From positions 215,076 to 239,075 of the forward strand of contig NZ_WKJJ01000004.1 of NCBI RefSeq assembly GCF_009674485.1: a DNA stretch of 24,000 bases. The letters are read 5' to 3'. Positions 1 to 24,000 of the stretch are shown here, piece after piece. The stretch comes from Pseudoduganella rivuli (GTDB lineage: Bacteria > Pseudomonadota > Gammaproteobacteria > Burkholderiales > Burkholderiaceae_D). The number at the start of each line of letters is the position of its first letter. Position 1 is the first letter of the stretch. Below the pieces are notes generated by a model. The model saw nothing but the letters and a program-made list of their open reading frames with translations. It did no database searches and was not told the DNA's origin. The position numbers were made by a program, and so were the translations under genes.

Positions 1-15
1 GAGTACCTGAAATCG

Positions 16-7348: not shown

Positions 7349-7351
7349 ACC

Positions 7352-8529
<1,178 letters not shown>

Positions 8530-8533
<4 letters not shown>

Positions 8534-9486: not shown

Positions 9487-9539
9487 CAAGCGTTGGTGTT
9501 ACATTACCAGTACGGCACGCAGATGCCGGGGGAGGGGAT

Positions 9540-10313
9540 ATGGGAAACACGTGGGATGAACGCTTTCGCGAAAAGCTGTCGGCACAGACCAGCCTGAACT
9601 CGGCGGCGCTGCTGCTGGCGGAAACCGCCTCCGAACTTGGCTGGAACCTGGCCGCGTTCCAACTCGACCGTGAACAATTGGCGCTGCCGCGCTGCAGCGA
9701 CGGCCAGTTCATCGGCACTGCCATGGGCTGGCCGTCCGACTGCGTGCACGCGTGGGTCGAGCGGGAACTTGGCCGCGATTGCCCGGTGACGCAGCAGTGC
9801 GGCCGCACGGCCGACGCCATCGTGTGGGAGTGCGATCCGGCCGGCGTGGCCTGGCGCGGCCGCAAGCTCGGCCCCGGGCAAACCGAGGTGTTGCGGTACT
9901 ACCGCAATTACTTTGAAGGCGCGGTGACGGTGCCGGTGCACCGCCCGGGCGGAAAATCCGGCTACGTGACGTGGTGCATCAGCGACCGCGACCAGCTGCT
10001 GCAGCGGGCCCGCGAAACGTATGGCGCCACCTACCTGATTTCCCATGCCTTCATCCGCCATATCGACAGCCTCGACGCCCTGCGCCGCGAAGCGTTCAAT
10101 ACCGCCAACCCGAATGCGCTGACGGCGCGTGAAATCGAATGCCTGCACTGGGCGGCCTGTGGCAAGACCGAGGATGAAATCGCGCAGATCATCCAGCGCT
10201 CGCACGATACGGCGCGCTTCCACCTGCGCAATGCCGTGGCCAAGCTCAATGCGAGCAACCGCACGCATGCGGTGGCGATCGCCTGTTCGCGCGGCCTGAT
10301 CACGGTGCGCTAG
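9540..10313 (+). CDS. LuxR-family transcriptional regulator (autoinducer-binding-like N-domain + LuxR HTH); no luxI in the window
   Basis: Start taken at ATG 9540, preceded by GGGGAGGGG. C-terminal HTH is LTAREIECLHWAACGKTEDEIAQIIQRSHDTARFHLRNAVAKLNASNRTHAV. The N-domain has a WP..C...W........DCP stretch in place of the canonical YP..W...Y........DP. Confidence 0.85.
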   Translation: MGNTWDERFREKLSAQTSLNSAALLLAETASELGWNLAAFQLDREQLALPRCSDGQFIGTAMGWPSDCVHAWVERELGRDCPVTQQCGRTADAIVWECDPAGVAWRGRKLGPGQTEVLRYYRNYFEGAVTVPVHRPGGKSGYVTWCISDRDQLLQRARETYGATYLISHAFIRHIDSLDALRREAFNTANPNALTAREIECLHWAACGKTEDEIAQIIQRSHDTARFHLRNAVAKLNASNRTHAVAIACSRGLITVR

Positions 10314-10340
10314 GCGCAGTGGCAATCAGGCGGACGGCTT

Positions 10341-10646
10341 TCAGCTGTCCATGCCGCCCACCGAACTGACGCGGTATTTCTTGACGTCGAACCCCAGCAT
10401 GGTCATCGATTGCGTTTTTCGCAGGAAGTCCGTGATATGGGGCGACTTCAAATGGTCGAGCAGCGCCTGCTCGCTGGCCCATTCCTCGCTGATCAGGATC
10501 ACGTTGGACTCTTCGAGGTCGCGTCCGAACGCATAGTAATTGCAGCCGGCCTCCTTGCGGGTCGGCGCGATGATGGCCGCCGCGGCATCGCTGAAGGCGT
10601 CGGTGAACTCGGGGGCGAGGGTAATGCGGGCGGAAATGGCGATCAT
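10341..10646 (-). CDS. small ABM-domain (antibiotic-biosynthesis-monooxygenase / quinol-monooxygenase-like) protein
   Basis: 101 aa. The pattern IAISARITLAPE...KEAGCNYYAF...ESNVILISEEWASEQALLDHLKSPH is typical of the ferredoxin-like ABM fold (YgiN-like). Confidence 0.7.
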   Translation of the reverse strand: MIAISARITLAPEFTDAFSDAAAAIIAPTRKEAGCNYYAFGRDLEESNVILISEEWASEQALLDHLKSPHITDFLRKTQSMTMLGFDVKKYRVSSVGGMDS

Positions 10647-10825
10647 CGTTGTCTCTCTTTCTCAATGGTTCTTGATGTTATCTCGGGTGATGTTGGCCGG
10701 TGATGCGGCGAAATCATCTTAGCAAAACACCCCCCTGGCCGAGACCTCCCTAAAAGGGTAGTTGTGGCCAATCCGTGCTTGGTCGACACTCATCGACATA
10801 CAACGAGATCAATCACGGAGACACC
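10647..10825. promoter_or_regulatory. divergent intergenic region between the ABM gene and the second Rieske operon; contains three TGATG(T/C)(T/G) direct repeats
   Basis: A 179-bp non-coding gap between divergently oriented genes. TGATGTT at 10673-10679 and 10688-10694, TGATGCG at 10701-10707. GGAG lies 6 nt upstream of ATG 10826. Confidence 0.3.
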
Positions 10826-12019
10826 ATGCTCGATGAAAAAGCAGTCTTGCACGCCATCGTCAAACGCGTGCTCAAGCACCTTGACGCCGGCACCACGGAC
10901 AGCGCGGAAGCGCCTTACCGCCATCCCACCTGGACTTACACCGATCCGGCGCTGTTCGAGGTGGAACGGCTTAAAATCTTCAAGGAAAACCCGCAACTGG
11001 TGGGTTTTTCGCCGGACTTGCCGCATCCCGGTTCGTTTTTCACCTTCGACGATCTCGGCGTGCCGGTACTGGTGGTGCGCGACAACGACGGCAAGGTCAA
11101 CGCTTTCCTGAACGCCTGCTCGCACCGCGGCGCGCGCTTGAAAGAAGGCTGCGGCAAGGCCGCTTCGCTCAGCTGCCCGTATCACGCCTGGGGCTTTGAT
11201 TTGAAAGGCAAGCTGCGCACGATCTACAAGGAAGAGAGCTTCGGCTGCGTCGACAAGGCCTATTACAACCTGGTCAAGCTGCCGGCCGAAGAGAAGTACG
11301 GCATGATTTACGTCGGCCTCGACCCTGACATGAAATTTTCCATCGACGACCACCTGGGCGACCTGGCGCAGTACTTCGCCATGTGGGATTTCTCGAAGAT
11401 GGCGCTGGTCAACACGCATGAATGGCGCATGCAGACCAACTGGAAGCTGGCGCTCGACACGTTTTGCGAGGGTTATCATTTCGGCCCGCTGCACAAGGAC
11501 AGCGTGGGCGATTACGCGATCGGCAATTTGTCGCTGTTCGACCGCTTCGGCCCCGGCCAGCGCCATCACCGGATCGCCTTCCCGAACACGTCGATCGGCA
11601 CGCTCAGGGACGTGCCGGAAGAACAGTGGACCGATGTGTTCAGCCACTTCCAGCTGGTGCATTTCATTTATCCGAACATATCGCTGCTGGTGTCGCCCAC
11701 CGCGGTGGAATTCTTCCAGCTGTATCCCGGCGCCACCGTCGACAGCCATCTGACGCGCTACCGCTGCTACTGGCGCTCCGACCTGGACCGGCCCGACCAG
11801 GGACGGGATCCTCAGGCCCACTTTGAATTCATCCGCGAGGTGGTCGACAAGGAAGACTACTGGGTCAGCGCCAACGTGCAAAAGTCGCTGAGCGCCAACA
11901 TCAAGCCGTTCTCGACCTTTGGACGCAACGAACCGGCGCTGATCAATATGCACCAGGCCTTCCTGCGTGGCGCCGGCATGACGCCCGAACAGGCGCAACT
12001 CGAAAAAGTGGGCGCCTGA
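10826..12019 (+). CDS. Rieske [2Fe-2S] non-heme-iron oxygenase, catalytic alpha subunit (second copy)
   Basis: Rieske motif CSHRGARL...CPYHAWGF and iron motif NWKLALDTFCEGYHFGPLH (H-x4-H). Start placed at the ATG preceded by GGAG; the ORF track begins 51 nt upstream at a non-ATG codon. Confidence 0.9.
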   Translation: MLDEKAVLHAIVKRVLKHLDAGTTDSAEAPYRHPTWTYTDPALFEVERLKIFKENPQLVGFSPDLPHPGSFFTFDDLGVPVLVVRDNDGKVNAFLNACSHRGARLKEGCGKAASLSCPYHAWGFDLKGKLRTIYKEESFGCVDKAYYNLVKLPAEEKYGMIYVGLDPDMKFSIDDHLGDLAQYFAMWDFSKMALVNTHEWRMQTNWKLALDTFCEGYHFGPLHKDSVGDYAIGNLSLFDRFGPGQRHHRIAFPNTSIGTLRDVPEEQWTDVFSHFQLVHFIYPNISLLVSPTAVEFFQLYPGATVDSHLTRYRCYWRSDLDRPDQGRDPQAHFEFIREVVDKEDYWVSANVQKSLSANIKPFSTFGRNEPALINMHQAFLRGAGMTPEQAQLEKVGA

Positions 12020-12020
12020 C

Positions 12021-12731
12021 ATGAAGCGCGTCGACGGCAAAGTCGTGCTGGTCACGGGCGCGGCTTCCGGGCTGGGCCGGGCCGATGCCCTGCTGCTGGC
12101 CCGCGAAGGGGCGCACATCGTGGTGAGCGACATCAACGAAGAAGCGGGACGCCAGGTGGCGCTGGAATGCGGCGGCGTGTTCGTGCGCCACGACGTGACC
12201 AGCGAAGCCGACTGGCGGCGTGTGGTCGCTGTGGCGGTGGAACGGTACGGCCGGCTCGACGTGCTGGTCAACAATGCCGGCATCGTGATTCCCGCCAATA
12301 TCGAGACCACGACGCTGGAGCAATACCGGCTGCTCAACGCGATCCACGCCGAAGGCACGTTTCTCGGCTGCCAGGCCGCACTCGGGGCCATGAAGGAACG
12401 CGGCGGCGCGATCATCAATATCGCTTCGATCACGGCGTTGCGCGGCTCGCCCCAGGTGCTGGCCTATGCGGCGGCCAAGGGCGCGATCCGGTCGCTGAGC
12501 CAGTCGGTGGCGGCGCACTGTATCGATAAAGGCTACCCGGTCCGTTGCAACGCGATCTTTCCCGGCGTGATGGCGACCCCGCTGGTGATCGCGGTGGTGG
12601 GCGAGAACTACCCCGGTGCGGGGCAGCCGGACGACGTGGCGAACATGGTGCTGTTCCTGGCGTCGGATGAGTCGCGCTTCGTCAATGGCGCTGAATTCGT
12701 GGTCGACAACGGCGCCTCGATGCGGCTGTAA
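12021..12731 (+). CDS. short-chain dehydrogenase/reductase (classical SDR)
   Basis: TGxxxGxG motif VLVTGAASGLGRA, plus NNAG and catalytic YAAAKGA (YxxxK). Starts 1 nt after the upstream stop. Confidence 0.9.
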   Translation: MKRVDGKVVLVTGAASGLGRADALLLAREGAHIVVSDINEEAGRQVALECGGVFVRHDVTSEADWRRVVAVAVERYGRLDVLVNNAGIVIPANIETTTLEQYRLLNAIHAEGTFLGCQAALGAMKERGGAIINIASITALRGSPQVLAYAAAKGAIRSLSQSVAAHCIDKGYPVRCNAIFPGVMATPLVIAVVGENYPGAGQPDDVANMVLFLASDESRFVNGAEFVVDNGASMRL

Positions 12732-12783
12732 AACTATACCGGCGGGCCGCCACGCGCAGGCCACGTCGAACCAGGAGACAGAG

Positions 12784-13554
12784 ATGACTGAAGCACCGCA
12801 GCACAAGGGCGCCATCGACGGCGTGTTGATCGCCTCCGGCAAGTACCACGATATCGATTTCGCACGGCTTGAACTGCTTAAATTGTTCGCCGAGGATGAA
12901 CACGTTCGCATCCGCGTGTTTGAAGACTACGCCAACCTCGATGCGATCCGCAACGCCAGTTTCCTCGTCACGTACACGTGCGACGTCGTGCCCAGCCTGG
13001 AACAGCAGGAAGCCTTGCGCAACTGGGTCGAAGCGGGCGGGCGCTGGTATGCGCTGCACGGCACCAGTTCCATCCTGCGCTTTCTCTCCAACGGCCTGGT
13101 CGATTCGCCGGACTGGGCGCCGCACCTGATGGAGACGCTGGGTTCGCAATTCATAGCGCACCCGCCGATTGCGCCATACCGGGTCGAGGTGGCCGACGCG
13201 GATCACCCGCTGGTGCGCGGCATTGAACCGTTCGAAGTGACGGACGAACTGTACTTGTCCGACATCCACGCCGACTTGCACGTGCTGCTCGATGCGCGAT
13301 TCGAGGGCGAGGCGACGGGCTTTGCGCGCGCCGACTGGCCCAAGGCCCGCCATCCTGTGTTTTACCTGCGCACCATCGGCCGGGGCGCGGTGCTGTACCT
13401 GACGCTCGGCCATTGCCGCGGCCACCACGACATGCGCCCGCTGATGGCGCACTGGCCCGAAGTCCAGCGCTGCGCATGGGAATTGCCTGTGTTTTATGAG
13501 CTGTTGCGGCGCGGTATTTCATGGTCGAAAGCAGCCGAACCATCCCCGAAGTAA
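12784..13554 (+). CDS. ThuA-like domain protein (class-I glutamine-amidotransferase-like fold, function unknown)
   Basis: Start at ATG 12784, preceded by AGGAG. The pattern VLIASGKYHDIDFAR...FLVTYTCD...WVEAGGRWYALHGT...F.AHPP resembles ThuA/trehalose-utilisation-domain proteins. Recognition is by eye only. Confidence 0.55.
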   Translation: MTEAPQHKGAIDGVLIASGKYHDIDFARLELLKLFAEDEHVRIRVFEDYANLDAIRNASFLVTYTCDVVPSLEQQEALRNWVEAGGRWYALHGTSSILRFLSNGLVDSPDWAPHLMETLGSQFIAHPPIAPYRVEVADADHPLVRGIEPFEVTDELYLSDIHADLHVLLDARFEGEATGFARADWPKARHPVFYLRTIGRGAVLYLTLGHCRGHHDMRPLMAHWPEVQRCAWELPVFYELLRRGISWSKAAEPSPK

Positions 13555-13599
13555 GCACCCAATCATAACGATAGCAATCAATTACAAAAGGAGAATGAA

Positions 13600-14358
13600 A
13601 TGGAACTGGGACTGCGTGGCAAGAAAGTCATCATCAACGGCGGCAGCCGCGGCATCGGCCGGGCGGCGCTCGAGCTGTTCGCGCAGGAAGGCTGCGACGT
13701 CGCCTTCTTTTCACGCGACGCCAAGCGCGTCGACGAGACCGTGACGCAATTGACGGCGGCGGGCGGCAAGGTGTTCGGCGAAGCCTTCGACATGAACGAC
13801 ATCGCGGCCTACCAGGCCTGGCTGGCCAAGGCCGCGGAAAAGCTCGGCGGCTGCGACATCTTCATCCACAACGCCAGCTCGTCCGGCGCGCAGGGCACCA
13901 CCGACTGGGATTTGACTTATAAACTCGACATGCTGGGCGCGGTGCGCGGCTGCGAAACGCTGGAACCATTCCTGGAAGCGTCCGGCGCCGGATCGGTGAT
14001 CCTGATGTCGAGCACGGCCGCGTTGGAAACGTTCATCTATCCGCAGGCGTTCAATGCCATCAAGTCCGCCATCATCACGTATGGCAAGCAACTGTCGCAA
14101 TTGTGGGCGGCCAAGAACATCCGCGTCAACATGCTGTCGCCGGGACCGGTCGCGTATCCGGGCGGCAACTGGTCGATGATCAAGGAGGCGGTGCCGGAGC
14201 TGTACAACAAGACGCTGTCGGAAATGCCGCTGGGCCGTTTCGGCGCGGTGGAGGATGTGGCGAACGCCATGGTATTCCTGTCGAGTTCGGCGGCTTCCTA
14301 CATCACCGGCGCCAACCTGGTGATCGACGGCGGCTATACCAAGCGCGTGCAGTTCTAA
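13600..14358 (+). CDS. SDR-family oxidoreductase
   Basis: Glycine-rich motif VIINGGSRGIGRA, plus HNAS, YxxxK-like AFNAIKSA and C-terminal ITGANLVIDGG. AGGAG lies upstream. Confidence 0.85.
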   Translation: MELGLRGKKVIINGGSRGIGRAALELFAQEGCDVAFFSRDAKRVDETVTQLTAAGGKVFGEAFDMNDIAAYQAWLAKAAEKLGGCDIFIHNASSSGAQGTTDWDLTYKLDMLGAVRGCETLEPFLEASGAGSVILMSSTAALETFIYPQAFNAIKSAIITYGKQLSQLWAAKNIRVNMLSPGPVAYPGGNWSMIKEAVPELYNKTLSEMPLGRFGAVEDVANAMVFLSSSAASYITGANLVIDGGYTKRVQF

Positions 14359-14371
14359 GCGGGAGCGCGCC

Positions 14372-14989
14372 ATGAAGCTGCATACCTCGATCGGGCCCAA
14401 TCCGCGCCTGGTCAACTTGTTCATCGCGGAAAAGGGCTTGTCGCTGCCGACCGTCATGGTCGACATCATCGCCGGCGAGAACCGGCGCCTGCCATTCCTG
14501 GCCATGAATCCGGCCGGCGGCACGCCGGTGCTGGAACTCGATGACGGCACCGCGCTGGCCGAGACCGTCGCGATCTGCGAATGGCTCGAGGAAGCGCATC
14601 CGGCGCCGGCGCTGATTGGCGCGACGGCGCGGGAAAGGGCCATTACGCGCATGTGGACGCGGCGGGTCGATTTGCTGGTGGTGCAGCCCATGACCGCCGG
14701 TTTTCGCGGCGCCGAGGGCTTGCCGCTGTTCAAGGACAGGCTGCGCTGCCTGCCGCAGGCGGCGGACGACCTGAAACTGGCGGCGCGCGAAGGGCTGGCG
14801 TGGCTGGACCGGCAACTGGGCGAGCGGCGCTACATTGCGGGCGATACCGTGTCGCTGGCCGACCTGCTGCTGTTCAGTTTTGTCGAGTTTGGCGCGCAAG
14901 TCGGGCAGCCGCTCGATGCCGGTAACCGGCGCCTGGCCGCCTGGCACGACCGGATGGCGTCGCGTCCCAGCGCAGTGGCGACCGCCTGA
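14372..14989 (+). CDS. glutathione S-transferase
   Basis: The N-terminal thioredoxin-like GST pattern ([14 protein letters not shown]...[29 protein letters not shown]) is followed by a helical C-domain. Confidence 0.85.
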
Positions 14990-15009
14990 GCGCGACCGGG
15001 AGGAAGCCC

Positions 15010-16647
15010 ATGCCATCGCTCTCGATTGCCAACAAGTTGCTGGCCGCGTTCGCCGCCATGCTTGCCATTGCGACCATATTGGGGATGTTTTCCATCAGCC
15101 AGCTGGGCACGGTCAACGGTACCGCCAAAGAACTGGGGCTGCTGTGGATGCCCAAGGTGCGTGCACTGCTCGAAGTCAAGGCCGACCTGGGAGACCTTCA
15201 TGCAACGGAACTGAACTATCTGTTGTCGCAGCAGCCGGCGTCGAAGGCTGCCTACAAGACCCGCATCGGCGTCATCCTTGCCCGGCTCGGCGGCACCGCC
15301 AAGCAGTACCGCGACTTGATGTCGACCCCCGACGAAATCACCATCTTCAAGGCGTCGGCCGTGACGTTCCAGGCATTCATGGCGGAGCATGAGAAGTTGA
15401 TGGCGCTGGTGGAAAAGGACCAGGGCGAGACGGCATTGACGCTGATCCGGGGCGACTATGCGCGCCTGCTGGAGGAATTGAATGGGCAGATCGATACCGT
15501 GGTCCGGCTCGATGTCGATGGCGCGGCCCAGGCCAGCCGCGATGGCGAAGCCCGCTTTGAGGCGGCACGGCTGTCGATAGGCTTGATGCTGGCAGGCGCG
15601 CTGGCGCTCGGGCTGCTGCTGGCGCTGTTGATTTCGCGCGCCATCGGCCGGCCGCTGCGCGCGGCCGCCAGTGTGGCCCGGCGTGTCGCCGATGGCGACC
15701 TGGGCGCCCATATCGAAGCGAAATCGGCTGACGAGACGGGCCAGATGCTGGACGCCCTGCGCGACATGAATGGCAGTCTGGTGCGGCTGGTGCGGCGGGT
15801 CCGTGCCGGCACCGAGACCATTGCGGGCGGCTCGGAGAGAATTGCCGCAGGCAACCTCGACTTGTCGCAGCGCACGCGGGCCCAGGCCGGCACGCTGGAG
15901 CAGACCGCCACGGCGATGGAGGCGCTGACGGCCGCGGTGAAAACCAATGCGGCCAGCGCGCTGCAGGCCAATCAACTGGCGGTCGCCGCCGCCGACGTGG
16001 CGAACCAGGGCGGCGCGGCCATGGCGCGCGTGATCGGCACGATGGGCGAGATCGATGCGTCGGCGCGGCGCGTGATCGACATCATTGCGGTCATCGACGG
16101 GATTGCATTCCAGACCAACATCCTGGCGTTGAACGCCGCGGTCGAAGCGGCGCGCGCCGGCGAGCAGGGCCGGGGATTCGCGGTGGTGGCCAGCGAGGTG
16201 CGCCACCTGGCGCAGCGCGCGGCCAGCGCCGCCAAAGAGATCAAGACGCTGACCGGCGATTCGGTGCAGCGGATCGACGACGGCAGCAGGATGGTGGGCG
16301 AGGCGGCGTCCACCATGCAGGAAGTGGTCGACAGCATCAGCCGTGTGACCGACTGCATGCGCAGCATCACATTGGCCAGCCAGGAACAGTCCACCGGCAT
16401 CGAGCGGGTCAACCGCGCCATCGGCGACATGGACCACGCCACGCAGCAGAACGCCGCGCTGGTACAGGAAACCGCGGCGGCCGCCCAGTCGCTGCAGGAG
16501 CAGGCCGGCGAACTGGTGACATTGGTGCGCGTGTTCCGGCTCGGGGCCGGCGACGCGCCGCCGGCAACGGCCGACTCGGCGCCAGCCGCCGATCCGGTGC
16601 GGCGGGGACTGCCGGCGGACCGCAGGATAGCCGCCGGCCACGTCTGA
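15010..16647 (+). CDS. methyl-accepting chemotaxis protein (4-helix-bundle sensor, HAMP, MA signalling domain)
   Basis: Two TM segments flank a roughly 160-aa periplasmic helical region. HAMP region is [18 protein letters not shown]. The highly conserved signalling hairpin is [42 protein letters not shown]. Confidence 0.9.
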
Positions 16648-16670
16648 GATAACATTTCACGGAGAATACG

Positions 16671-17519
16671 ATGGAAGTCAACGCGGTCGGCGTCATTGGC
16701 GCCGGCATCATGGGTAGTGGCATCGCGCAGATTTGCGCAGTCTCCGGCAGGCAGGTGGTGCTGGTCGATACGTCCGACGCCGCGGTGGCGCGCGGCATGG
16801 CCGGCATCAGCGGCACGCTGGACCGCGCGGTCGGCAAGGGCTTGCTCGATGCGCCGGGCAAGGCCGCGGCGCTGGCGCGGATCAGCGGGACCACGGATTA
16901 CCAGCGCCTGGCGCAATGCGACCTGGTGATCGAGGCGGCCACCGAGAACGAAGCCATCAAGTTGCAGGTACTTAAGCAGGTGGACGAAGTGTTGCGGCCC
17001 GAGGCGATCATCGCCACCAACACCTCGTCGATTTCCATCACCAGGCTGGCGGCAGCCACGTCCCGGCCCGAGCGTGTGATCGGCATGCATTTCTTTAATC
17101 CGGTGCCGTTGATGGCGCTGGTGGAACTGATCCGCGGCCTGCAAACGTCGGACCGGACCCATGAGACAGCCGAAATCCTCGCGCTGGCCATCGGCAAGAC
17201 CCCGGTCGCGGTCGGCAACAGCCCTGGCTTCGCGGTGAACCGGATTCTTTGCCCGATGATCAATGAAGCGATCTTCGTGCTGCAGGAAGGCCTGGCCAAG
17301 GCGAAAGACATCGACGACGGCATGAAGCTCGGCTGCAGCCACCCGATCGGCCCGTTGGCGCTGGCTGACCTGATCGGCCTCGACACGCTGCTGGCGGTGA
17401 TGGACACCCTGCACCAGGGTTTCAATGACCCCAAGTACCGGCCCGCGCCGCTGCTCCGGGAAATGGTCGACGCCGGGCGGCTGGGGCGCAAGAGCGGCCG
17501 CGGATTTTACGAGTACTGA
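16671..17519 (+). CDS. 3-hydroxyacyl-CoA (3-hydroxybutyryl-CoA-type) dehydrogenase
   Basis: Rossmann motif VGVIGAGIMGSGIAQ. Also has IIATNTSSISIT, HFFNPVPLM, and a C-terminal GRKSGRGFYEY typical of the Hbd/PaaH family. Confidence 0.9.
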   Translation: MEVNAVGVIGAGIMGSGIAQICAVSGRQVVLVDTSDAAVARGMAGISGTLDRAVGKGLLDAPGKAAALARISGTTDYQRLAQCDLVIEAATENEAIKLQVLKQVDEVLRPEAIIATNTSSISITRLAAATSRPERVIGMHFFNPVPLMALVELIRGLQTSDRTHETAEILALAIGKTPVAVGNSPGFAVNRILCPMINEAIFVLQEGLAKAKDIDDGMKLGCSHPIGPLALADLIGLDTLLAVMDTLHQGFNDPKYRPAPLLREMVDAGRLGRKSGRGFYEY

Positions 17520-17521
17520 CC

Positions 17522-18316
17522 ATGGACAGCACGAACAACCCGATTTTGTACTCCTGCCGCGATGGCATCGCGCGCATCCGCTTCAATCGTCCGGCGGCGC
17601 TGAATGCGATCGACGAGACGATGGCGAAGGCCCTGTGCGGCATCGCCTTCGAACTGGAACACAGCCGCGATGTGCGCGTGGTGGTGATGAGCGGCGAGGG
17701 CGCGGCCTTCATGGCGGGCGGCGACCTGGTGAGTTTTCACCAGGACAAGGCGCGCATGGCGTGCACCGCCGATGCGATCATCAAGCCGGTCAATGTGGCG
17801 TTGGCGCGCCTGGCGGCGCTGCCGCAACCGCTCGTCGCCAGCGTCCACGGCGCGGTGGCCGGCGCCGGCGTGAGCATGGCGCTGGCCTGCGACCTGTGCA
17901 TCGCCGCAGACGATACCCAGTTCAATCTGGCGTATGCCCGTATCGCCACCAGTCCCGACGCCGGCAGCACCTGGGCGCTGCCGCGCGTGGTCGGCACCCG
18001 CAAGGCGCTGGAACTGATGTTGTTGTCCGAATCGTTCGGCGCCGAGGAAGCGCTGCGGCTGGGCATCGTCAACCGGGTGGTCACGCGCGAAGGGCTGGCG
18101 GACGCCACGGAAACCCTGGCGCGCCGCCTGGCCGCAGGGCCGACCCATGCCTATGGCCAGATCAAACGCCTGGTCCAGGCCTCGTTCGACACCCGCTTTG
18201 AAGAACAGCTCGACGCCGAGCGCAAGGCCTTCTGTGCCTGTACCGCCACGGCGGATTTTGCCGAGGGACTCGATGCGTTCTTCGAAAAGCGGCGTCCGGT
18301 TTTCAGTGGTGGTTGA
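17522..18316 (+). CDS. enoyl-CoA hydratase/isomerase (crotonase family)
   Basis: Crotonase pattern RIRFNRPAALNAID...VVVMSGEGAAFMAGGDL...HGAVAGAGVSMALACD...FFEKRRPVF. Starts 2 nt after the upstream stop. Confidence 0.9.
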   Translation: MDSTNNPILYSCRDGIARIRFNRPAALNAIDETMAKALCGIAFELEHSRDVRVVVMSGEGAAFMAGGDLVSFHQDKARMACTADAIIKPVNVALARLAALPQPLVASVHGAVAGAGVSMALACDLCIAADDTQFNLAYARIATSPDAGSTWALPRVVGTRKALELMLLSESFGAEEALRLGIVNRVVTREGLADATETLARRLAAGPTHAYGQIKRLVQASFDTRFEEQLDAERKAFCACTATADFAEGLDAFFEKRRPVFSGG

Positions 18317-18349
18317 TGTCATTGGCGCAGGTGCGCGACAGGAGCCGTT

Positions 18350-18538
18350 ATGGATACGTTCAGGAAGAAAAGCTGGAAATGGCTGTTGATATTGGCGGGC
18401 GGACTGGCTGCTGCCGCGGCGGGCGGTGTTTTCGATGACCCGGCGCCGGCAGGGCAAATCCAGGCCGTGATGCCGGACGGCTATCCGGGCATACCGCCGG
18501 CGTTCAGCTGGGACGATATCTTCAGGGCGCCGCATTAG
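18350..18538 (+). CDS. possible small membrane-anchored or secreted protein (62 aa), hypothetical
   Basis: AGGAG lies 6 nt upstream of the ATG. Basic N-terminus plus hydrophobic segment KKSWKWLLILAGGLAAAAAGGVF. Codon third positions are GC-rich like the neighbours. No recognisable family. Confidence 0.35.
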   Translation: MDTFRKKSWKWLLILAGGLAAAAAGGVFDDPAPAGQIQAVMPDGYPGIPPAFSWDDIFRAPH

Positions 18539-18567
18539 TATTGCGTTCCAACCGGCCGTCAATCTCG

Positions 18568-19092
18568 TCACGACTGCCTGCTGGAATCCATGGGGGCGAG
18601 GTATATGCGAATGCGTTCAATTGAAATCTCGATGCCGTCAGGAAGCTCGTGATGAGGGTGTATGGAGACCTGAAACTGAGCATCCGGCGGCAGCGCCTGC
18701 CCGAAGAGTTGATTGGCTTGGGACGTGAAGTCGAGGTAGCTTGTCAATCCGGCATTCGTTCCACCTGGATGAGACACACTGGCCTTCCTGAGGCCGAAAA
18801 GGGCGATACTTCCAAGATAAACCTCGCCGGCAGTGCCGCCCCCGTTCGGGCTGCGGGCCCGTATCTGCACGCGAAGCACCGTAGCGTCGAAAGTGCCACG
18901 CATGTTTTCGAGCGCAATGTAGACGCGGGAGGTTGAACCGATGCTGCTCATGGTCGCGGCATCGGAGAGGACCGCGCCCTGTAAGCGCACTGTCACTTCG
19001 ACGCCAGCGGATCGGACGGATGTGACGTTGTCACACGAGGCGATTACCAGAGGCGCCGAGGTTGTCCTCGATTTGTCACTCTTTTGTATCAT
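18568..19092 (-). CDS. free-standing paralog of the tyrosinase C-terminal (PPO-type lid) domain; hypothetical protein
   Basis: By-eye alignment to aa ~430-538 of the tyrosinase at 19900-21525. RVYIALENMRGTFDATVLRVQI aligns with QLYLKLENVRGTQDAAVLRVYI. GSIALFGLRKAS aligns with GSVGLFGLRRAS. GLTSYLDF aligns with GLTFILDI. ISIERIRIY aligns with IEVGRVSIY. It is the last gene of the - strand operon, 27 nt after the upstream stop. Confidence 0.7.
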   Translation of the reverse strand: MIQKSDKSRTTSAPLVIASCDNVTSVRSAGVEVTVRLQGAVLSDAATMSSIGSTSRVYIALENMRGTFDATVLRVQIRARSPNGGGTAGEVYLGSIALFGLRKASVSHPGGTNAGLTSYLDFTSQANQLFGQALPPDAQFQVSIHPHHELPDGIEISIERIRIYLAPMDSSRQS

Positions 19093-19119
19093 ATAGGTGC
19101 CTGTGCAACGTCTGATTTG

Positions 19120-19887
19120 CTATTGGGACCGTTTGAGTAAAGGCGCGAGCCAGCCAGGAGCATTTAAGCAAGCGGTGCGGCGAAGGCGTAAAGCGGCAGT
19201 GCGACCCCCCCTCAGTTTCCAGCCGGGTGTCGTCGGCGGATCCATACGCTCGCAGTACATGAGCAATGCCACCAGGGCCATGCCTTCAATATGCCACTGT
19301 GAGAGCGAATCGGCAAACAGCATCAGCGCCCAGCAAGAACCCATGCACCAGAATCCATGGTCCAAGCCGAAGCGAAGCGCGTCCATGTCGGCCGCCAGCC
19401 CAAATGCGGATAGCGGACGGTGAAAATGGCATTGATTCAGGCATCGCTGTTTCAGGGGGGAGACCTGCCAAAGACCGGCCGTCAGCGCCGTTACGCCAAC
19501 GAGGAAAGACTCATCCTGGACACCCCGGCTGATCACCAGTTCAAGCAGCTTCGTGGCCCAGCCTGCGACCAGCCAAATCGCAATGTACCCCACCCAGAAA
19601 AGCGCATTGCTGCGCCGTCGCCGGTCGCTAAACGAACTGATCCGAATGTGCAATAACGGCTGGATGTTCAGGGGCGTCATCATTGCGGCAACCATCAACA
19701 GCCATCCGGCGCTTGCCGACAGCATCCAGTCAGCCGTTGATCCAGGAATCCAGCCTGAGCCACAAATGGATGTTATCTGCACAGGCCCTGACCAAAGAGC
19801 CTGTGCAATGATGGGAGCCCACGCGGCACAGCTGATGAAAAAAAGGCAGCGCTGGATACGGTGGGCTTCGCTTCTGCTATAGAACAT
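19120..19887 (-). CDS. polytopic membrane protein resembling DUF2182/COG5486 (predicted metal-binding integral membrane protein; PpoB2-like candidate copper chaperone for tyrosinase)
   Basis: Several hydrophobic segments with Met/Cys/His clusters: LLMVAAMMTP, CLNQCHFHRP, GFWCMGSCWALM, WHIEGM. Starts 12 nt after the tyrosinase stop. Family assignment is by recollection of the motif pattern and is not searched. Confidence 0.65.
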   Translation of the reverse strand: MFYSRSEAHRIQRCLFFISCAAWAPIIAQALWSGPVQITSICGSGWIPGSTADWMLSASAGWLLMVAAMMTPLNIQPLLHIRISSFSDRRRRSNALFWVGYIAIWLVAGWATKLLELVISRGVQDESFLVGVTALTAGLWQVSPLKQRCLNQCHFHRPLSAFGLAADMDALRFGLDHGFWCMGSCWALMLFADSLSQWHIEGMALVALLMYCERMDPPTTPGWKLRGGRTAALRLRRTACLNAPGWLAPLLKRSQ

Positions 19888-19899
19888 CGTCGCGACGGA

Positions 19900-21525
19900 T
19901 CAAATCGGCTGGCGATAAATGCTTACCCGGCCGACTTCGATCGGGCTGGCTTGCGGCGCGCTGCCGGCGCTTTCGACATCGACTTTGATCTGGTTGGCGG
20001 ACAGCTTGTCTTTGACAAACAAGGTATCCACGAAGCGCGAAATATCAAGTATGAATGTCAGGCCTGAACCGCCGTGTGCACCATCCTTGATGCTTGCGCG
20101 CCGCAGCCCGAAAAGGCCGACACTGCCAACGAACTGCTTGCGCTGGGTGGCCTGGTCTGGCTGCGGCGGCAGATCGATGTAGACGCGGAGGACAGCTGCA
20201 TCCTGCGTGCCCCGTACGTTTTCCAGTTTCAGGTACAGCTGGTCGGGAAGCTGGGTGACGGATGCAAATCCCAAGCTCTTCACCACATTCTTTTGAACCG
20301 CCTGGTGCAGCCCCACGTTGACAGAGGTGAAGCCCGCTTTCGAGATCTGAAGTGGACCTGTGTTCGCGCCGAGAAGCTCGGCAGGCTGCGCCGGACTCGC
20401 TTTGTGGGTCAACGGTACAAACTCATTCGCAGCGCCGATAGCCCCCAACTTGACCAGCCGCTGCGCCAAAAGGTTTGCTGCCGGCTTTTGAGGCATTGCA
20501 GCGTCTTGATAGGCATAGTTCAAGGTCGAAAGGCTTTGTACTTCACCTGGCGTATAGACCCATGGCTCGCTGTCAGGCATCGGCATCACAAATTGCTGTG
20601 CCGGCCCGTCGAGCCAGGCGCTCTCGGTAGGGTTGGCATTTCCGGCATCGTTCCAGGAGGCCCACATCCGGTCGATATTGCAATGATGAAGGTAGAAGAC
20701 CGGGTCCAGTGCGGCCGTGCCTGGATCGGCCATGATGCCGTAGTCAGGACTGCTGAGGTTTCCGCCGACGTAGACGTGAACCAGGTCATGCGGATTACTT
20801 TCCATATTCCCGTGCGGGCTGCCGTTGTGGGCGAATCCGGACTCTGGTCCGCCGAATCCTGGTGCCGGCGTGGCTGGATCCGATCCGGTATAGAGATCAT
20901 TGTGCATGCAAATATCGGTCACATCACCATATTGCGGTTTGGGCGCTTGACCGTGTCCTTCTACCCAGGCGGGGGTCGGAATGTAGATATTGCCGTCATC
21001 TTGCGGGCCGAAGCGCATGGTGACAAACAAGGGGTTGGGGGTGCCGTCCGGGAGTTTCTCGGTGGTGAATGCCGGCGGAATTGCCGCATCGGCTCCTTGT
21101 GCGCCACCAAAGTAATTCCAGTACGGAAGCGCCCAGGTATCCGGTCCGCCGAGACTGACGATGTCAGCGCGCAGCTGCGCCTCCAGCGCCAGAAGGTAGC
21201 CGCGATGCCATGGCAGGAAGTACCAGGTGCCGTGTTGGCATTGATTCCAGAATTTGTCTTGTGTCGTCTGGCTTGGAAGCGGCGAGGTCGGCACGGCAGG
21301 CTGGCCGCTCACGTATCCCCAGGCGGGGAATGCGGGTGGATTGGGGTACCAGGCTGTGTCGGGATTCACATATTCGCCATGGATCGCAGCGAAGAACCAC
21401 CAGCTGGCCGGATCATTGAGCTCGCGCTGCATCATCTTGCCAACGCCCTTCGCATACCAGAGAAGGTCGGGATTACTGAGGGTACCGCCTTGGTTCCATG
21501 CATTCTGGCGCGTAAAAGTAGTCAT
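19900..21525 (-). CDS. tyrosinase / polyphenol oxidase (type-3 copper) with a PPO-like C-terminal domain; no signal peptide
   Basis: CuA: H49 (AAIHGEY) and C96-Q-H98-x8-H107 (CQHGTWYFLPWHRGY). CuB: H246-x3-H250 (NPHDLVHVYVGG) and FYLHHCNIDRMW. Y-x-Y motif (YAY, aa 337-339), then a linker and a roughly 145-aa C-terminal domain. Confidence 0.92.
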   Translation of the reverse strand: MTTFTRQNAWNQGGTLSNPDLLWYAKGVGKMMQRELNDPASWWFFAAIHGEYVNPDTAWYPNPPAFPAWGYVSGQPAVPTSPLPSQTTQDKFWNQCQHGTWYFLPWHRGYLLALEAQLRADIVSLGGPDTWALPYWNYFGGAQGADAAIPPAFTTEKLPDGTPNPLFVTMRFGPQDDGNIYIPTPAWVEGHGQAPKPQYGDVTDICMHNDLYTGSDPATPAPGFGGPESGFAHNGSPHGNMESNPHDLVHVYVGGNLSSPDYGIMADPGTAALDPVFYLHHCNIDRMWASWNDAGNANPTESAWLDGPAQQFVMPMPDSEPWVYTPGEVQSLSTLNYAYQDAAMPQKPAANLLAQRLVKLGAIGAANEFVPLTHKASPAQPAELLGANTGPLQISKAGFTSVNVGLHQAVQKNVVKSLGFASVTQLPDQLYLKLENVRGTQDAAVLRVYIDLPPQPDQATQRKQFVGSVGLFGLRRASIKDGAHGGSGLTFILDISRFVDTLFVKDKLSANQIKVDVESAGSAPQASPIEVGRVSIYRQPI

Positions 21526-21581
21526 CTTCGTCTCACTTTCTTGATATTGGTTGCGAATGGGGGCAAGTCAACTGGCTTGCT

Positions 21582-22211
21582 CTACCAGGAGAACATGCAT
21601 TTCTCAGGCTCTACGATGTCGCTTTCAAATGGAGGTTGCGGGTAATACTGAAGGTTGCGTTGCACTTTCCGCGCTGTCTCATCGCCAAATAGCTGACGGA
21701 CCAGGTGCAGCGATTCATCCAGGCAGGACGAAATGCCGCCGCCGGTGAGCCGATTTCGGTCGTGGACGAAGCGCGGGAAGCCGTCTGCGACGTCGATGAG
21801 GGGGAACTGTCGCAAGCAGGGCAGAAATGCCCAGTGCGTGGTCGCCTTGTAGCCGTCCAGCAGGCCCGCCCTGGCTATAAGGAGCGCACCTTCGCATACT
21901 GAACAAACCCAGGTGGCCTGCTCGCCGATACGGCGCAGATAATCAAGAAAGACGCCACCGTCCTGGCGATCCATCAGCATTGCCAACGCCTTGGGATCGC
22001 CGCCAGGCACCCACAGAATGTCCAATTTGTCGACGTCCGATAATCGTTTCGACGCGAGAAATCGGAAACCATCCCGGGTGACGACAGGTTGGTCAATCGA
22101 GGTGGCCAACAGCTGCACTTCCACCTTGTCGCCAAGCCAACTGAAGACCTCGTGGGGGCCGGTGACGTCAAGCAGGTCGACGCCCTGGTAGACTGGAATG
22201 CCGATAATCAT
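21582..22211 (-). CDS. DJ-1/PfpI-family protein (class-I glutamine-amidotransferase-like fold)
   Basis: Has IGIPVYQGVDLLDVTGPHEVF, ILWVPGG, the nucleophile-elbow Cys context VCSVCEGALLIARAGLLDGYKATTHW, and C-terminal LTGGGISSCLD. AAGAGGGG lies upstream of the ATG. Confidence 0.85.
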   Translation of the reverse strand: MIIGIPVYQGVDLLDVTGPHEVFSWLGDKVEVQLLATSIDQPVVTRDGFRFLASKRLSDVDKLDILWVPGGDPKALAMLMDRQDGGVFLDYLRRIGEQATWVCSVCEGALLIARAGLLDGYKATTHWAFLPCLRQFPLIDVADGFPRFVHDRNRLTGGGISSCLDESLHLVRQLFGDETARKVQRNLQYYPQPPFESDIVEPEKCMFSW

Positions 22212-22220
22212 GAGCCCCTC

Positions 22221-22691
22221 TTATTGGCCGCCAGTGTGCGAAGTGTCCGCCAACATGATGAAGCTCGCCGTAACGCCTGCCGGCGCACCGTTGTGCGGAA
22301 CGGCTCTTAGGACGGTCCCGACGAATGCCGGCACTTGATTGACGCTTGTCGGCCATACCGGGCAGAGAAATGCCTGATAGTCGTATTCCCAGCCTTCAGT
22401 TGGCGTACCTGGGCGGCCTTTGCCCACGAACGCCAATTTGGTCGCAGATTCCGTGTCCGTCAGTTGGCCGCGTACGTCAAGAATGTAGTCGCTCGACATC
22501 ACGAATTCGCCGGAGATCGTTTGTTCGTCTTGCGTCAGGGTGAACACGCCTTCGCCGAAGATTAAGGCCAGCGCTTTGGTTGGATCGCCGTCCACAAGCC
22601 CAATATTGTTGCGATAACTTCGATAGACCCAGGTGGAAGATTGAAGGGTTTGGTGCGCATTCAGCGCCTCTGGCGTGACGTTTGAATTCAT
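22221..22691 (-). CDS. hypothetical protein (156 aa), first gene of the tyrosinase operon; no recognisable family
   Basis: ATG is preceded by GAGGT. The stop lies 9 nt before the DJ-1 start. Alternating hydrophobic/polar stretches suggest a beta-rich soluble protein. No signal peptide and no motif I can name. Confidence 0.6.
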   Translation of the reverse strand: MNSNVTPEALNAHQTLQSSTWVYRSYRNNIGLVDGDPTKALALIFGEGVFTLTQDEQTISGEFVMSSDYILDVRGQLTDTESATKLAFVGKGRPGTPTEGWEYDYQAFLCPVWPTSVNQVPAFVGTVLRAVPHNGAPAGVTASFIMLADTSHTGGQ

Positions 22692-22907
22692 GATGACGAC
22701 CTCGCTTCGATAGCAAAAGTTGGGTACGGATACCGGCCGATTTCAGGAAACGTTCGTGTGGATTGCGCTACTCCGTTTGGGGCAGAGATTTCTGAGTCGC
22801 GTAGGAGGAATCTTACTGAGTATAAAAACGGCAATACTATCCAATTGTTGCAATTTGTTTTTTTGCAACAGCTAACAACATGTGGGAGAGGGTACGGAGA
22901 TGCGACG
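22692..22907 (-). promoter_or_regulatory. AT-rich 216-bp intergenic region upstream of the tyrosinase operon (candidate promoter/operator, and terminator of the GT gene)
   Basis: This is the only sizeable non-coding gap on the - strand in this block. A - strand TATACT (-10-like) lies at 22819-22824, with no well-spaced -35 found. The inverted repeat is listed separately. Confidence 0.3.
22846..22870. repeat. 8-bp perfect inverted repeat TGTTGCAA-n9-TTGCAACA
   Basis: The arms are at 22846-22853 and 22863-22870, with a T-rich 9-nt spacer on the + strand (A-rich on the - strand). It lies 38 nt downstream of the GT stop on the - strand. No U-tract follows it on the - strand, so it could be a weak terminator or a protein-binding palindrome. 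Confidence 0.4.
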
Positions 22908-24000
22908 TTACGTTCCGGCTGCGGATGGTCGATATCCCGCCTCGATCACCTGCGCCCCGCACGCCGGGCCATCGAAACGACGTACATCGCGTTGCATGGC
23001 CGCCAGCGCGGCGTGCACGTCCCGGTCGCCCAGCAGGCGGTCGGCATGGGCGCGCAACATCGCCGGCGTGTGGCGCACGCGCGATACGCGCACGCCCACG
23101 CCGAGTTGTTCGAGGCGCTGCGCGACCCAGGTCTGGTCGAACACAAAAGGAAAGGCAATCACCGGTACGCCGTGATACAGGCACTCGGCAGCCGTGTTGT
23201 AGCCGCCATGTGCAAAGACCAGGTCGAACTGCTCGATCAGGTAAAACTGGTTGACGAAGGGCCTGCCGAGGATGGTGGCCACGAGCGGCAAGTCCGCGAG
23301 CGCTTCGCTGAGCAGATCGGGCGGCGCCGAAAACAGGAACAGGCAATCTGCCTCATTGTGGGATAACACGATATGGCGGAATATGCGCAATGCCGCCGCA
23401 CGGTTGTGTTCCATGCCGGCCAACACCGAGCCCAGCGAAACGAAGAACTTCCTGCCCTTGAATCGGGCTATCCGGACCGCCAGGTCCAGGTCGTCGGCGC
23501 TCGGCTCGCGCCGCACGAAGGCCGGGCCGACAAAGGACACCGGCACCGCGCCGGTGGTGCCGATGGCGCTGGCCGCGCGCTGGTCACCCGGCGCCGCCGC
23601 GCAAAAGGTGGGTGTGGCAAAGCAGAGGTAATGCGCTGGCAAGGCCAGTGCGTTTGCGCCGTGTGGCAAGCTGCGCTCCAGACTCGCACACAGTTCGCTG
23701 AACAGCGTATTGAACGCGGTCGCCATGCCTTTGCCGACGCAGGACGGCAGCTCGTCTTTCGGCAGGAACTCCAGCGGCGAGCTGATCGTGTAGGCAAAGC
23801 GGCAGTCCAGTTCACCGGCCAGCAGTGGCGCCAGCGGCAGCAACTGGTCGAACAACAGCAGGTCCGGCGCAAACTCGCGGCAATGCCGCAAGGTGTCGGC
23901 ATGGACCGCCAGGCAGAATTGTTGCAAGGCCTGCAGCGCTTCCGTCACCAGGCCGCCATCGGCCACGTGACCGATCGCCTGCTCGATGTTAAACGAGGGA
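22908..24000 (-). CDS. GT1-family (GT-B fold, UDP-glycosyltransferase/MGT-like) glycosyltransferase, 5'-truncated by the window edge
   Basis: C-terminal nucleotide-sugar motif HGGYNTAAECLYHGVPVIAFPFVFDQTWVAQRLE. The reading frame remains open from the GTG at 23966 to nt 24000, and the length (352 aa + 11 codons) is short for the family, so the true start is probably beyond the window. Confidence 0.85.
   Translation of the reverse strand, partial: PSFNIEQAIGHVADGGLVTEALQALQQFCLAVHADTLRHCREFAPDLLLFDQLLPLAPLLAGELDCRFAYTISSPLEFLPKDELPSCVGKGMATAFNTLFSELCASLERSLPHGANALALPAHYLCFATPTFCAAAPGDQRAASAIGTTGAVPVSFVGPAFVRREPSADDLDLAVRIARFKGRKFFVSLGSVLAGMEHNRAAALRIFRHIVLSHNEADCLFLFSAPPDLLSEALADLPLVATILGRPFVNQFYLIEQFDLVFAHGGYNTAAECLYHGVPVIAFPFVFDQTWVAQRLEQLGVGVRVSRVRHTPAMLRAHADRLLGDRDVHAALAAMQRDVRRFDGPACGAQVIEAGYRPSAAGT

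Follow-up and report, generated by a model that had tools for sequence, protein, structure and literature searches.

A tyrosinase gene cluster of Pseudoduganella rivuli composed of two conserved modules, with candidate accessory families of bacterial phenol oxidases

Tyrosinase operons that include genes for accessory maturation or lid proteins are already known from bacteria, the examples being melC1-melC2 of Streptomyces and ppoB1-ppoB2 of Marinomonas mediterranea. Here we analyse a five-gene cluster of this overall kind (positions 18568-22691, minus strand) in a stretch of 24,000 nucleotides of Pseudoduganella rivuli FT92W (Oxalobacteraceae; RefSeq assembly GCF_009674485.1, contig NZ_WKJJ01000004.1, positions 215,076 to 239,075), referred to below, at its full length, as the window. 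The genes encode, in order, a 156-aa protein predicted to be a beta-barrel (the barrel), a DJ-1/PfpI protein, a tyrosinase with its own C-terminal lid (the cis lid, DUF7868), a membrane copper chaperone of the PpoB2 type and a stand-alone paralogue of the lid (the trans-lid). Two conserved modules make up the cluster, module A comprising tyrosinase, PpoB2 and trans-lid and module B comprising barrel and DJ-1 protein. Two things appear to be new, namely the conserved trans-lid as third gene of a PpoB2-type operon, and an unnamed barrel family that is, together with a DJ-1 protein resembling isocyanide hydratase (ICH), a recurrent and often fused partner of tyrosinases and multicopper oxidases (MCOs). 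Our results concern gene content, domain identities, the conservation of active-site and plug residues, a compositional island, gene linkage and domain fusions; latency conferred by a lid is known from the relative HcTyr1, and copper delivery from PpoB2.

The best functional analogy for the trans-lid is the caddie protein MelC1 of Streptomyces, a small separate protein that inserts an aromatic side chain into the active site of the tyrosinase and serves copper loading; a review of 2024 recognizes no other lid-type (active-site-covering) partner that is encoded separately (PMC11608171). It belongs, however, to an unrelated family (PF06236), whose Pfam profile matches neither the barrel nor the trans-lid of the window, and it bears a Tat signal, whereas the window proteins have no signal. 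The Streptomyces tyrosinase also lacks a cis lid, whereas the window encodes a cis lid as well as a trans copy. In M. mediterranea, the tyrosinase gene is directly followed by the PpoB2/COG5486 gene, as in the window, and PpoB2 is a specific copper donor to its tyrosinase (PMC2855505). That operon has been published as two genes, whereas the window adds a conserved third gene, for the stand-alone DUF7868 protein, and two upstream genes. The first-pass annotation of this DNA had named a precedent only for the pair of tyrosinase and membrane protein, and the Marinomonas work is indeed the sole published one that we found. As regards the enzyme itself, the closest solved relative is HcTyr1 of Hahella sp. 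CCB MM4 (PDB 8B74), whose C-terminal domain is a self-cleaving lid with Phe397 over the active site; removal of the lid raises kcat approximately 30-fold, and approximately 50-fold for L-DOPA (PMC11609597). HcTyr1 differs in having 466 aa against 541 in the window enzyme, and it was studied as a lone protein, with no operon partners reported.

Two questions are at stake in such systems: how cells with a cytoplasmic tyrosinase escape self-poisoning by o-quinones, and how lid-bearing bacterial enzymes become activated. Bacterial tyrosinases are used for the production of melanin, L-DOPA and catechols and for cross-linking, and are almost always expressed alone. The locus described here offers three candidates, namely a trans-acting lid (in Betaproteobacteria and Bacteroidota), the barrel family and the ICH-like DJ-1 protein.

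Two modules in one cluster

The list of open reading frames (ORFs) of the window contains the five packed minus-strand genes, with intergenic gaps of 9, 56, 12 and 27 nt, just as the first-pass annotation had described them. The barrel gene (22221..22691) encodes a protein without a signal peptide, with no Pfam match at E ≤ 1 and no NCBIfam match. It is followed by the genes for the 209-aa DJ-1 protein (21582..22211; Pfam DJ-1_PfpI, 4e-16), the 541-aa latent-type tyrosinase (19900..21525; Tyrosinase PF00264, 2e-32, and DUF7868 PF25271, 2e-47), the 255-aa PpoB2-type protein, formerly DUF2182/COG5486 (19120..19887; PpoB2 PF09948, 2e-31), and the 174-aa trans-lid (18568..19092; DUF7868, 5e-22). 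The four domain calls made from the letters alone (DJ-1/PfpI, tyrosinase, DUF2182-like protein and a copy of the tyrosinase C-terminal domain) are thereby confirmed by Pfam. All five proteins are on record for the strain (MRV71674-MRV71678), and the long start codons are backed by N-terminal residues kept among orthologues: those of PpoB2 align across all 255 aa with 70-73% identity, and those of the trans-lid have an N-terminus in common (MIQKS, MNQKS or MIKKS).

The five genes have a G+C content at third codon positions (GC3) of 0.64-0.70, whereas the genes to either side of them have 0.80-0.86; they thus form a compositional island. An enoyl-CoA hydratase gene (17522-18316, plus strand) with the GC3 of the genomic backbone flanks it on one side and a GT1 glycosyltransferase gene (EryCIII-like C-terminal domain/UDPGT; 22908-23966, minus strand) on the other. 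Because its GC3 differs from that of both flanks, the cluster was probably acquired horizontally. Insertion sequences often flank related loci, which fits a mobile module.

Modules A and B occur apart far more often than together. The order tyrosinase(DUF7868)-PpoB2-trans-lid was found at 17 loci, the window included (the others being L001, L005, L058-L064, L066, L067, L070-L072, L075 and L076), with the trans-lid always the third gene. A barrel gene is present at six of these (the window, L001, L005, L059, L060 and L075) and a DJ-1 gene at two (the window and L059); in Pseudoduganella sp. UC29_71 (L005), for example, the order is barrel-Tyr-PpoB2-lid, without DJ-1. The barrel, whether or not a DJ-1 gene is present, is mostly found with MCOs and with other subfamilies of tyrosinase. 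The genomic evidence for the linkage and for the modules is strong. The proposal that the five genes are an undescribed system holds in this modular form but not as a fixed five-gene unit, since outside the window the exact order was found only on one contig of a metagenome-assembled genome (MAG; L059, 53-81% amino-acid identity). The neighbourhood is nevertheless not peculiar to this genome, as each of its parts is conserved well beyond it.

The tyrosinase scores 113.8 bits against PF00264 (cut-off 22.6), and its type-3 copper catalytic domain spans approximately residues 40-293. Residues 382-539 (nt 19903-20382, minus strand) form the cis lid, which scores 161.6 bits against DUF7868 (cut-off 25). 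The closest PDB match is HcTyr1 (1.3e-58), with the catalytic and C-terminal domains both aligned. With the HcTyr1 ligands numbered as published (PMC11609597), the six copper histidines and the C-x-H motif of the window enzyme align with them (H49, C96-x-H98, H107, H246, H250 and H281/282). Three of the histidines serve CuA and three CuB, and C-x-H is a thioether motif that is typical of bacterial tyrosinases with a lid. The plug residue F472, in VGLFGL, aligns with Phe397 of HcTyr1 (GLFGL). Since there is no Sec or Tat signal, it is a reasonable reading of the sequence that the tyrosinase is a cytoplasmic, latent enzyme.

The stand-alone protein scores 79 bits against DUF7868 (cut-off 25) and keeps the plug motif LFGLRxAS (as ALFGL), with F99 at the position of F472 in the cis lid and of Phe397 in HcTyr1. 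It is 22-30% identical to cis lids (30% to that of its own operon), whereas trans-lid orthologues of other organisms are 36-69% identical; judged by these identities, the trans-lid is an old, maintained paralogue, neither a recent duplicate nor a fragment. The motif L[F/Y]GLRxAS is invariant among trans-lids, the plug position being F or Y in all ten that were aligned. The trio loci come from Oxalobacteraceae, Burkholderia, Paraburkholderia, Dyadobacter and soil metagenomes. Among the sampled neighbourhoods of tyrosinase homologues, the trio stands in the same order in Glaciimonas, Paraburkholderia, Burkholderia ubonensis and Dyadobacter (Bacteroidota), and a Pyrinomonadaceae contig has Tyr-PpoB2 only. 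A scan of metagenomes with the trans-lid alignment gave 15 loci, and the trans-lid follows PpoB2 in 10 of the 10 that extend far enough. A word-indexed search had returned only six homologues, all of them stand-alone, which suggested a tiny clade; this is a limit of sensitivity, because the neighbourhoods and the metagenome scan show the trio to be widespread. In the searchable literature, we found no paper that mentions DUF7868 and no description of a lid paralogue.

The PpoB2 protein scores 109.8 bits against PF09948 (cut-off 28.7). Its gene starts 12 nt past the tyrosinase stop codon, and PpoB2 is directly downstream of the tyrosinase at all 17 trio loci as well as at L056 and L065. A simple hydropathy scan gives three clear hydrophobic stretches. 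The protein has the Cys/His motifs C149xxxC153-HFH and C181xxxC185, and we take CxxxC-HFH and CxxxC to be the defining motifs of the PpoB2 family.

Two observations concern genes next to module A or next to related tyrosinases. At one trio locus (L058:8893-12882), the trans-lid gene is followed by a gene for a 1329-aa protein with amine-oxidase and lipoxygenase domains and then by one for a DUF4440 protein; the same domain is joined to the barrel in the fusions P0273 and P0284. At loci of the Rhizobium type, a conserved secreted protein of approximately 151 aa, with no Pfam family and with the motif EIGRFGIFP, is encoded directly after the tyrosinase (L004:12264-12719, L009:14988-15533, L012:14258-14725 and relatives). 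Aligned with DUF7868 lids by hhalign, it gives a probability of 4.5% and an E-value of 0.009 over the last 26 columns only.

The barrel family and its DJ-1 partner

The first-pass annotation had taken the 156-aa protein for an orphan. This does not hold: at least 257 indexed homologues exist, and an exhaustive profile search yields 572 representative clusters at E ≤ 1e-3. Of 32 family members searched, none matches any Pfam family and none reaches the lipocalin families or DUF3237 at E ≤ 10, so that the label 'DUF3237 family' found in UniRef is not reproduced by Pfam. A search with the family profile found no related sequence in the PDB, and no description of the barrel partner was found in the searchable literature. 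The AlphaFold model of the window protein (pLDDT 84.8) has eight antiparallel strands, and the best Foldseek matches in the PDB are streptavidin, avidin and rhizavidin, followed by FABP and retinol-binding protein (RBP). The invariant residues are W21, Y23, R24, W101, Y103, D104, Y105, W113, Q119, R129, H133, S143 and F144; the family thus has one invariant His, together with one near-invariant Met, and neither a conserved Cys nor a His/Met-rich motif. Many homologues and fusions start with a Sec-type signal, and many of the partner tyrosinases and oxidases have Tat or Sec signals.

Two described systems invite comparison. In PvdP, the pyoverdine-maturation tyrosinase of Pseudomonas aeruginosa (PDB 6EYS), an N-terminal non-lid domain precedes the tyrosinase domain (PMC11608171). 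The profile of the barrel family, however, finds no PvdP chain among PDB sequences, 6EYS is outside the 50 best Foldseek matches, and the catalytic domain of PvdP, an insect-type domain with two CuB sites, has no match to the window tyrosinase at E ≤ 0.001. We take the N-terminal domain of PvdP to be a streptavidin-like eight-stranded barrel, which would parallel fusions such as P0255 and P0279. The other system is that of the plant dirigent proteins, small eight-stranded beta-barrels without redox activity of their own that capture phenoxy radicals from a copper oxidase. Dirigent proteins working with laccases or peroxidases provide a mechanistic analogy only, for barrels linked or fused to MCOs; there is no sequence match to dirigent proteins and no detected fold match, none being among the 50 best Foldseek matches.

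The linkage of the barrel to phenol oxidases was assessed at 50 loci, one genome per species; 15 of these are from Caulobacter, so the loci are not phylogenetically independent. A tyrosinase domain is encoded within approximately 3 kb of the barrel gene at 39 of the 50. An MCO is present at 23, an ICH-like DJ-1 protein also at 23, and at least one of the three at 42. Genomes usually hold at most one or two tyrosinase genes, and we estimate the chance adjacency of a given gene at approximately 0.1-1%; because this is so low, the linkage at 39 of 50 loci cannot be due to chance. The order of the genes varies, with at least seven arrangements among Alpha-, Beta- and Gammaproteobacteria, Actinomycetota and Bacteroidota (the tyrosinases linked to barrels being from at least four phyla in our summary count). 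They include MCO-Tyr-barrel-DJ1 in Caulobacter and in a Rhodanobacteraceae MAG, barrel-(DJ1)-MCO-Tyr-151aa in Rhizobium and relatives, DJ1<-Tyr<- ->barrel in sphingomonads, Tyr<- ->barrel in Thermoleophilaceae and another actinomycete MAG, barrel->Tyr-HEAT in Chitinophagaceae, MCO-barrel-Tyr on plasmid pRmeGR4b of Sinorhizobium meliloti and M4 peptidase-barrel-Tyr(DUF7868)-DUF2182 on Rhizobium phaseoli plasmids (e.g. pRphaN261c). The tyrosinases concerned belong to different subfamilies: DUF7868 finds no match in several, and in some there is a resemblance to the C-terminal domain of plant PPO.

The two partners are also found in one chain. Among the 17 family members of more than 400 aa that were tested, 14 are fused to a tyrosinase, an MCO or both, and AhpC/TSA, RidA, DUF4440 or HEAT domains often join them. 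The architectures are Barrel-Tyr-DUF7868 (P0255), Tyr-...-barrel (P0155), Barrel-Tyr (P0279), Barrel-MCO (P0210, P0238, P0240 and P0259), barrel-MCO-AhpC/TSA-Tyr(-HEAT) in proteins of 1300-1900 aa (P0222, P0243, P0246, P0266, P0267 and P0281) and Barrel-DUF4440-RidA-MCO-AhpC (P0284). A single-sequence AlphaFold model of the barrel-tyrosinase-lid fusion P0255 had a pLDDT of 34.7 and was unusable for placing the barrel. Linkage and fusion to tyrosinases and to laccase-type oxidases alike argue for a shared accessory role of the barrel.

On the rhizobial plasmids (S. meliloti GR4 pRmeGR4b and R. phaseoli pRphaN261c), the barrel gene is directly upstream of the tyrosinase gene. These barrels, annotated as hypothetical, are only 35-37% identical to that of the window, however, and the loci have neither a trans-lid nor a DJ-1 gene. 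We assume that the tyrosinase gene mepA maps to pRmeGR4b and that the tyrosinase encoded there is MepA. An identification of the tyrosinase of pRphaN261c as the R. etli MelA known from the literature was considered and found unsupported, as the plasmid search gave no R. etli CFN42 record; it is not claimed here. Because the barrel gene sits unannotated beside plasmid-borne rhizobial tyrosinase genes, genetic systems for its study already exist. On another R. phaseoli plasmid of the symbiotic type (L081; pRphaN831c, NZ_CP013566.1 93028-103393), a second barrel gene follows a truncated MCO gene, and a gene annotated as encoding an avidin/streptavidin family protein is approximately 1.9 kb away.

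The DJ-1 protein scores 59.6 bits against DJ-1_PfpI (cut-off 26.6) and falls far below all cut-offs of the NCBIfam equivalog models for DJ-1, PfpI and YajL. Its best solved relative is the ICH of Pseudomonas fluorescens (PDB 3NON and relatives), which it matches over its full length (3NON: 1e-32, residues 3-197). The initial description as a DJ-1 protein with a cysteine nucleophile therefore stands and can be refined to ICH-like. The nucleophile, Cys106 in SVCEG, aligns with Cys101 of ICH, and the N-terminal Asp, ATTHW and TGGGI are kept; invariant among the tyrosinase-linked homologues are D15, SVC(E/T)G, ATTHW and TGGGISS. The catalytic set of ICH presumably also includes Asp17 and, beside Cys101, Thr102. 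The overall identity is only approximately 40%, however, and the Thr beside the nucleophile is Glu107 in the clade of the window, although it is kept in members of the Caulobacter type. Where a DJ-1 gene accompanies a barrel gene (the 23 loci above), it is within approximately 175 nt of the barrel gene at 17, just past an intervening tyrosinase gene at five and 4.7 kb off at one. In fused proteins, the equivalent slot is held by peroxiredoxin or RidA domains, which suggests that the job of the DJ-1 protein is the generic removal of reactive species made by the oxidases.

Proposed roles and rival explanations

The reading that we favour, and consider fairly probable, sees in the locus a cytoplasmic phenol-oxidase operon of the melanin type that was acquired horizontally and is made of the two conserved modules, whose products would act as follows. 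The tyrosinase, being of the HcTyr1 type, would be held latent by its own DUF7868 lid, the Phe of the LFGL motif plugging the dicopper site, and PpoB2 would pass copper to the apo-tyrosinase. The trans-lid may dock on the tyrosinase in trans by means of the same plug. It might act in the manner of a caddie, holding the apo-enzyme open during PpoB2-dependent copper loading, or as an inhibitor that re-caps an enzyme whose cis lid has been cleaved or displaced; in both cases, the output of o-quinone inside the cell would stay gated. The calycin-like barrel would bind not metal but a phenolic substrate or a reactive quinone or radical product, as a carrier or in a dirigent-like fashion. A small-molecule ligand is suggested by the fact that the barrel travels and fuses with two unrelated classes of copper enzymes that oxidize phenols, and by its aromatic-rich invariant residues together with Arg, Asp and His, and the single invariant His argues against a copper site. 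The DJ-1 enzyme would remove a reactive electrophile or an inhibitor. The roles suggested in the first-pass annotation, of an inhibitor or caddie for the lid paralogue and of protection for DJ-1, thus stay plausible. The five genes would be co-transcribed.

A broader proposal is more tentative, and we regard it as possible rather than probable: that bacterial phenol oxidases have two accessory families that have gone unnoticed. One would be the barrels, which would capture or steer the phenolic substrates, or the quinone and radical products, of tyrosinases and MCOs, and would so be a bacterial counterpart of dirigent or caddie proteins, usually teamed with a cysteine-based detoxifier (ICH-like DJ-1, peroxiredoxin or RidA); the other would be the stand-alone DUF7868 proteins, trans-acting lids that would control copper loading and latency together with PpoB2. 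Were both true, tyrosinase activity in many soil and plant-associated bacteria would be run by a multi-protein machine and not by a single enzyme, and work on the recombinant tyrosinases in wide use would have left out the partners that these enzymes have in nature. Should the roles hold, the production and regulation of tyrosinases in biotechnology would change, as would the reading of microbial phenol oxidation in soil.

Several points weigh against the favoured reading. For the trans-lid, the barrel and the DJ-1 protein, all proposed roles are drawn from genomic context. The C-terminal-domain tyrosinases ReMelA, RmMepA and HcTyr1 are active in Escherichia coli without partners (PMC11608171, PMC11609597), so the partners are not required for catalysis and would instead modulate, protect or direct the reaction. 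Nine trio loci with adequate upstream sequence have neither barrel nor DJ-1, which makes module B dispensable for this clade of tyrosinases. Conversely, eight of the 50 barrel loci have no tyrosinase, MCO or DJ-1 gene nearby, and at three loci (L036, L038 and L057) the DJ-1 and barrel genes form a pair with no tyrosinase or MCO within 6-10 kb, so that the pair can form a unit of its own; L057 is on a megaplasmid of Ralstonia syzygii (NZ_CP068286.1, 565112-566218). Structural matches to the barrel are weak (E ~1e-2, TM 0.5-0.55; probability 1.0). Unlike many barrel homologues and their oxidases, the window proteins have no Sec or Tat signals, so that the compartment differs between lineages and the partnership would operate in either one. 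As for a single transcript, a scan of 18200-23100 found no consensus sigma-70 promoter, and the seven terminator-like sites in the same interval (4.4 expected) are at chance level and inside genes, so that no terminator consensus backs the idea.

In the main rival explanation, the barrel would be a maturation factor of copper oxidases, either a copper-insertion chaperone or a REMP-type pre-export proofreading chaperone that retains Tat-exported tyrosinases and MCOs in the cytoplasm until they are metallated, and not a binder of small molecules. What tyrosinases and MCOs have in common besides phenolics is copper and O2, and the known tyrosinase partners, MelC1 and PpoB2, are copper-loading factors (PMC11608171, PMC2855505). 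In addition, at loci of Caulobacter, Rhizobium and Methylobacteriaceae, the tyrosinase has a twin-arginine signal and the MCO a signal peptide, and the adjacent barrel has none. Against this, the conserved residues of the barrel (one His, a near-invariant Met, no Cys and no His/Met-rich motif) are a poor basis for copper handling, and the operon of the window already contains PpoB2. Many barrels carry a Sec signal of their own, or are fused behind one to an oxidase, and so act outside the cytoplasm, and fusion as a permanent domain would be unusual for a transient chaperone. We therefore judge this explanation unlikely, if the strongest of the alternatives.

It has also to be considered that the DJ-1 protein might be a true isocyanide hydratase and module B a counter-inhibitor device, destroying or sequestering isonitrile natural products that poison copper phenol oxidases, so that these enzymes stay active in soil or in the rhizosphere. 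This idea gains some weight from rhabduscin, an isonitrile that inhibits both mushroom tyrosinase and the phenoloxidase of insects in the low nanomolar range (PMC6386379), as well as from the relationship to ICH noted above (1e-32, with Cys and Asp kept and with Cys-Thr kept in the Caulobacter-type members) and the occurrence of DJ-1 and barrel as a pair at L036, L038 and L057. Yet identity to the characterized enzyme is low, Glu replaces Thr next to the nucleophile in the clade of the window, and functions within the DJ-1 superfamily are notoriously not transferable by homology. The peroxiredoxin and RidA domains in the fusion slot point to the handling of reactive species in general and not of isonitriles. 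We know of no isocyanide chemistry for tyrosinase operons, and we consider this explanation improbable.

Still less credible is the suggestion, raised in the first-pass annotation, that the cluster serves to tailor one specific phenolic secondary metabolite and is not a general generator of melanin or quinones. The GT1 glycosyltransferase gene precedes the barrel gene at a distance of 216 nt and in the same orientation, and one related locus (L063) adjoins a PKS-NRPS gene; beta-barrels and NTF2-like (DUF4440) domains, moreover, serve as cyclases in natural-product pathways. With its GC3 of 0.80, however, the glycosyltransferase gene belongs to the backbone and is outside the island, and as it is not kept at related loci either, it was ruled out as a sixth member. 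The 80 related loci give the suggestion no conserved support: neither the trio nor the barrel has a conserved biosynthetic core gene beside it, and the flanks vary between loci, often with insertion sequences.

That the five genes are neighbours by chance, the three extra ORFs being unrelated to the tyrosinase, is very improbable and already contradicted by the conservation data: although the exact order is rare and the scan for promoter and terminator consensus came up empty, the linkage recurs over many gene orders and phyla and extends to domain fusions, an atypical GC3 is common to all five genes, and they lie on one strand with gaps of only 9-56 nt.

Surroundings of the cluster

None of the five proteins has a match to a PADLOC model (E ≤ 0.01), and a defence system was rejected accordingly. 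A promoter may be presumed, from position only, in the A+T-richer intergenic region of 216 nt upstream of the barrel gene (22692..22907, minus strand). Approximately 155 nt before the start codon of the barrel gene, this region contains a perfect inverted repeat, GTTGCAA-N9-TTGCAAC, with arms of 7 bp (22847-22869), possibly an operator site. Rhizobial melanin genes are NifA/RpoN-dependent, and for this reason the sigma-54 (-24/-12) pattern was also scanned for, with nothing above chance in the window or in L056.

At the other end of the island, between it and the enoyl-CoA hydratase gene, there is a 62-aa ORF (18350-18538, plus strand) with a signal-peptide-like N-terminus (MDTFRKKSWKWLLILAGGLAAAAAGG...) and no Pfam match. 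The remainder of that side of the window (1-18316, plus strand) is an aromatic/CoA-dependent catabolic block with the GC3 of the backbone, at the end of which the tyrosinase island is inserted. Besides the enoyl-CoA hydratase, the block encodes two alpha subunits of Rieske ring-hydroxylating oxygenases (16-1314 and 10775-12019), two acyl-CoA dehydrogenases (2324-3514 and 7352-8533), an AMP-dependent ligase (4608-6260), an APH-type kinase (6257-7348), an SDR protein (13600-14358), a methyl-accepting chemotaxis protein (15010-16647) and a 3-hydroxybutyryl-CoA dehydrogenase (16671-17519), all on the plus strand. A second dip in G+C content, to 0.58-0.60 against approximately 0.65-0.70 around it, is found at 10001-12000 of the window and spans the second Rieske oxygenase gene.

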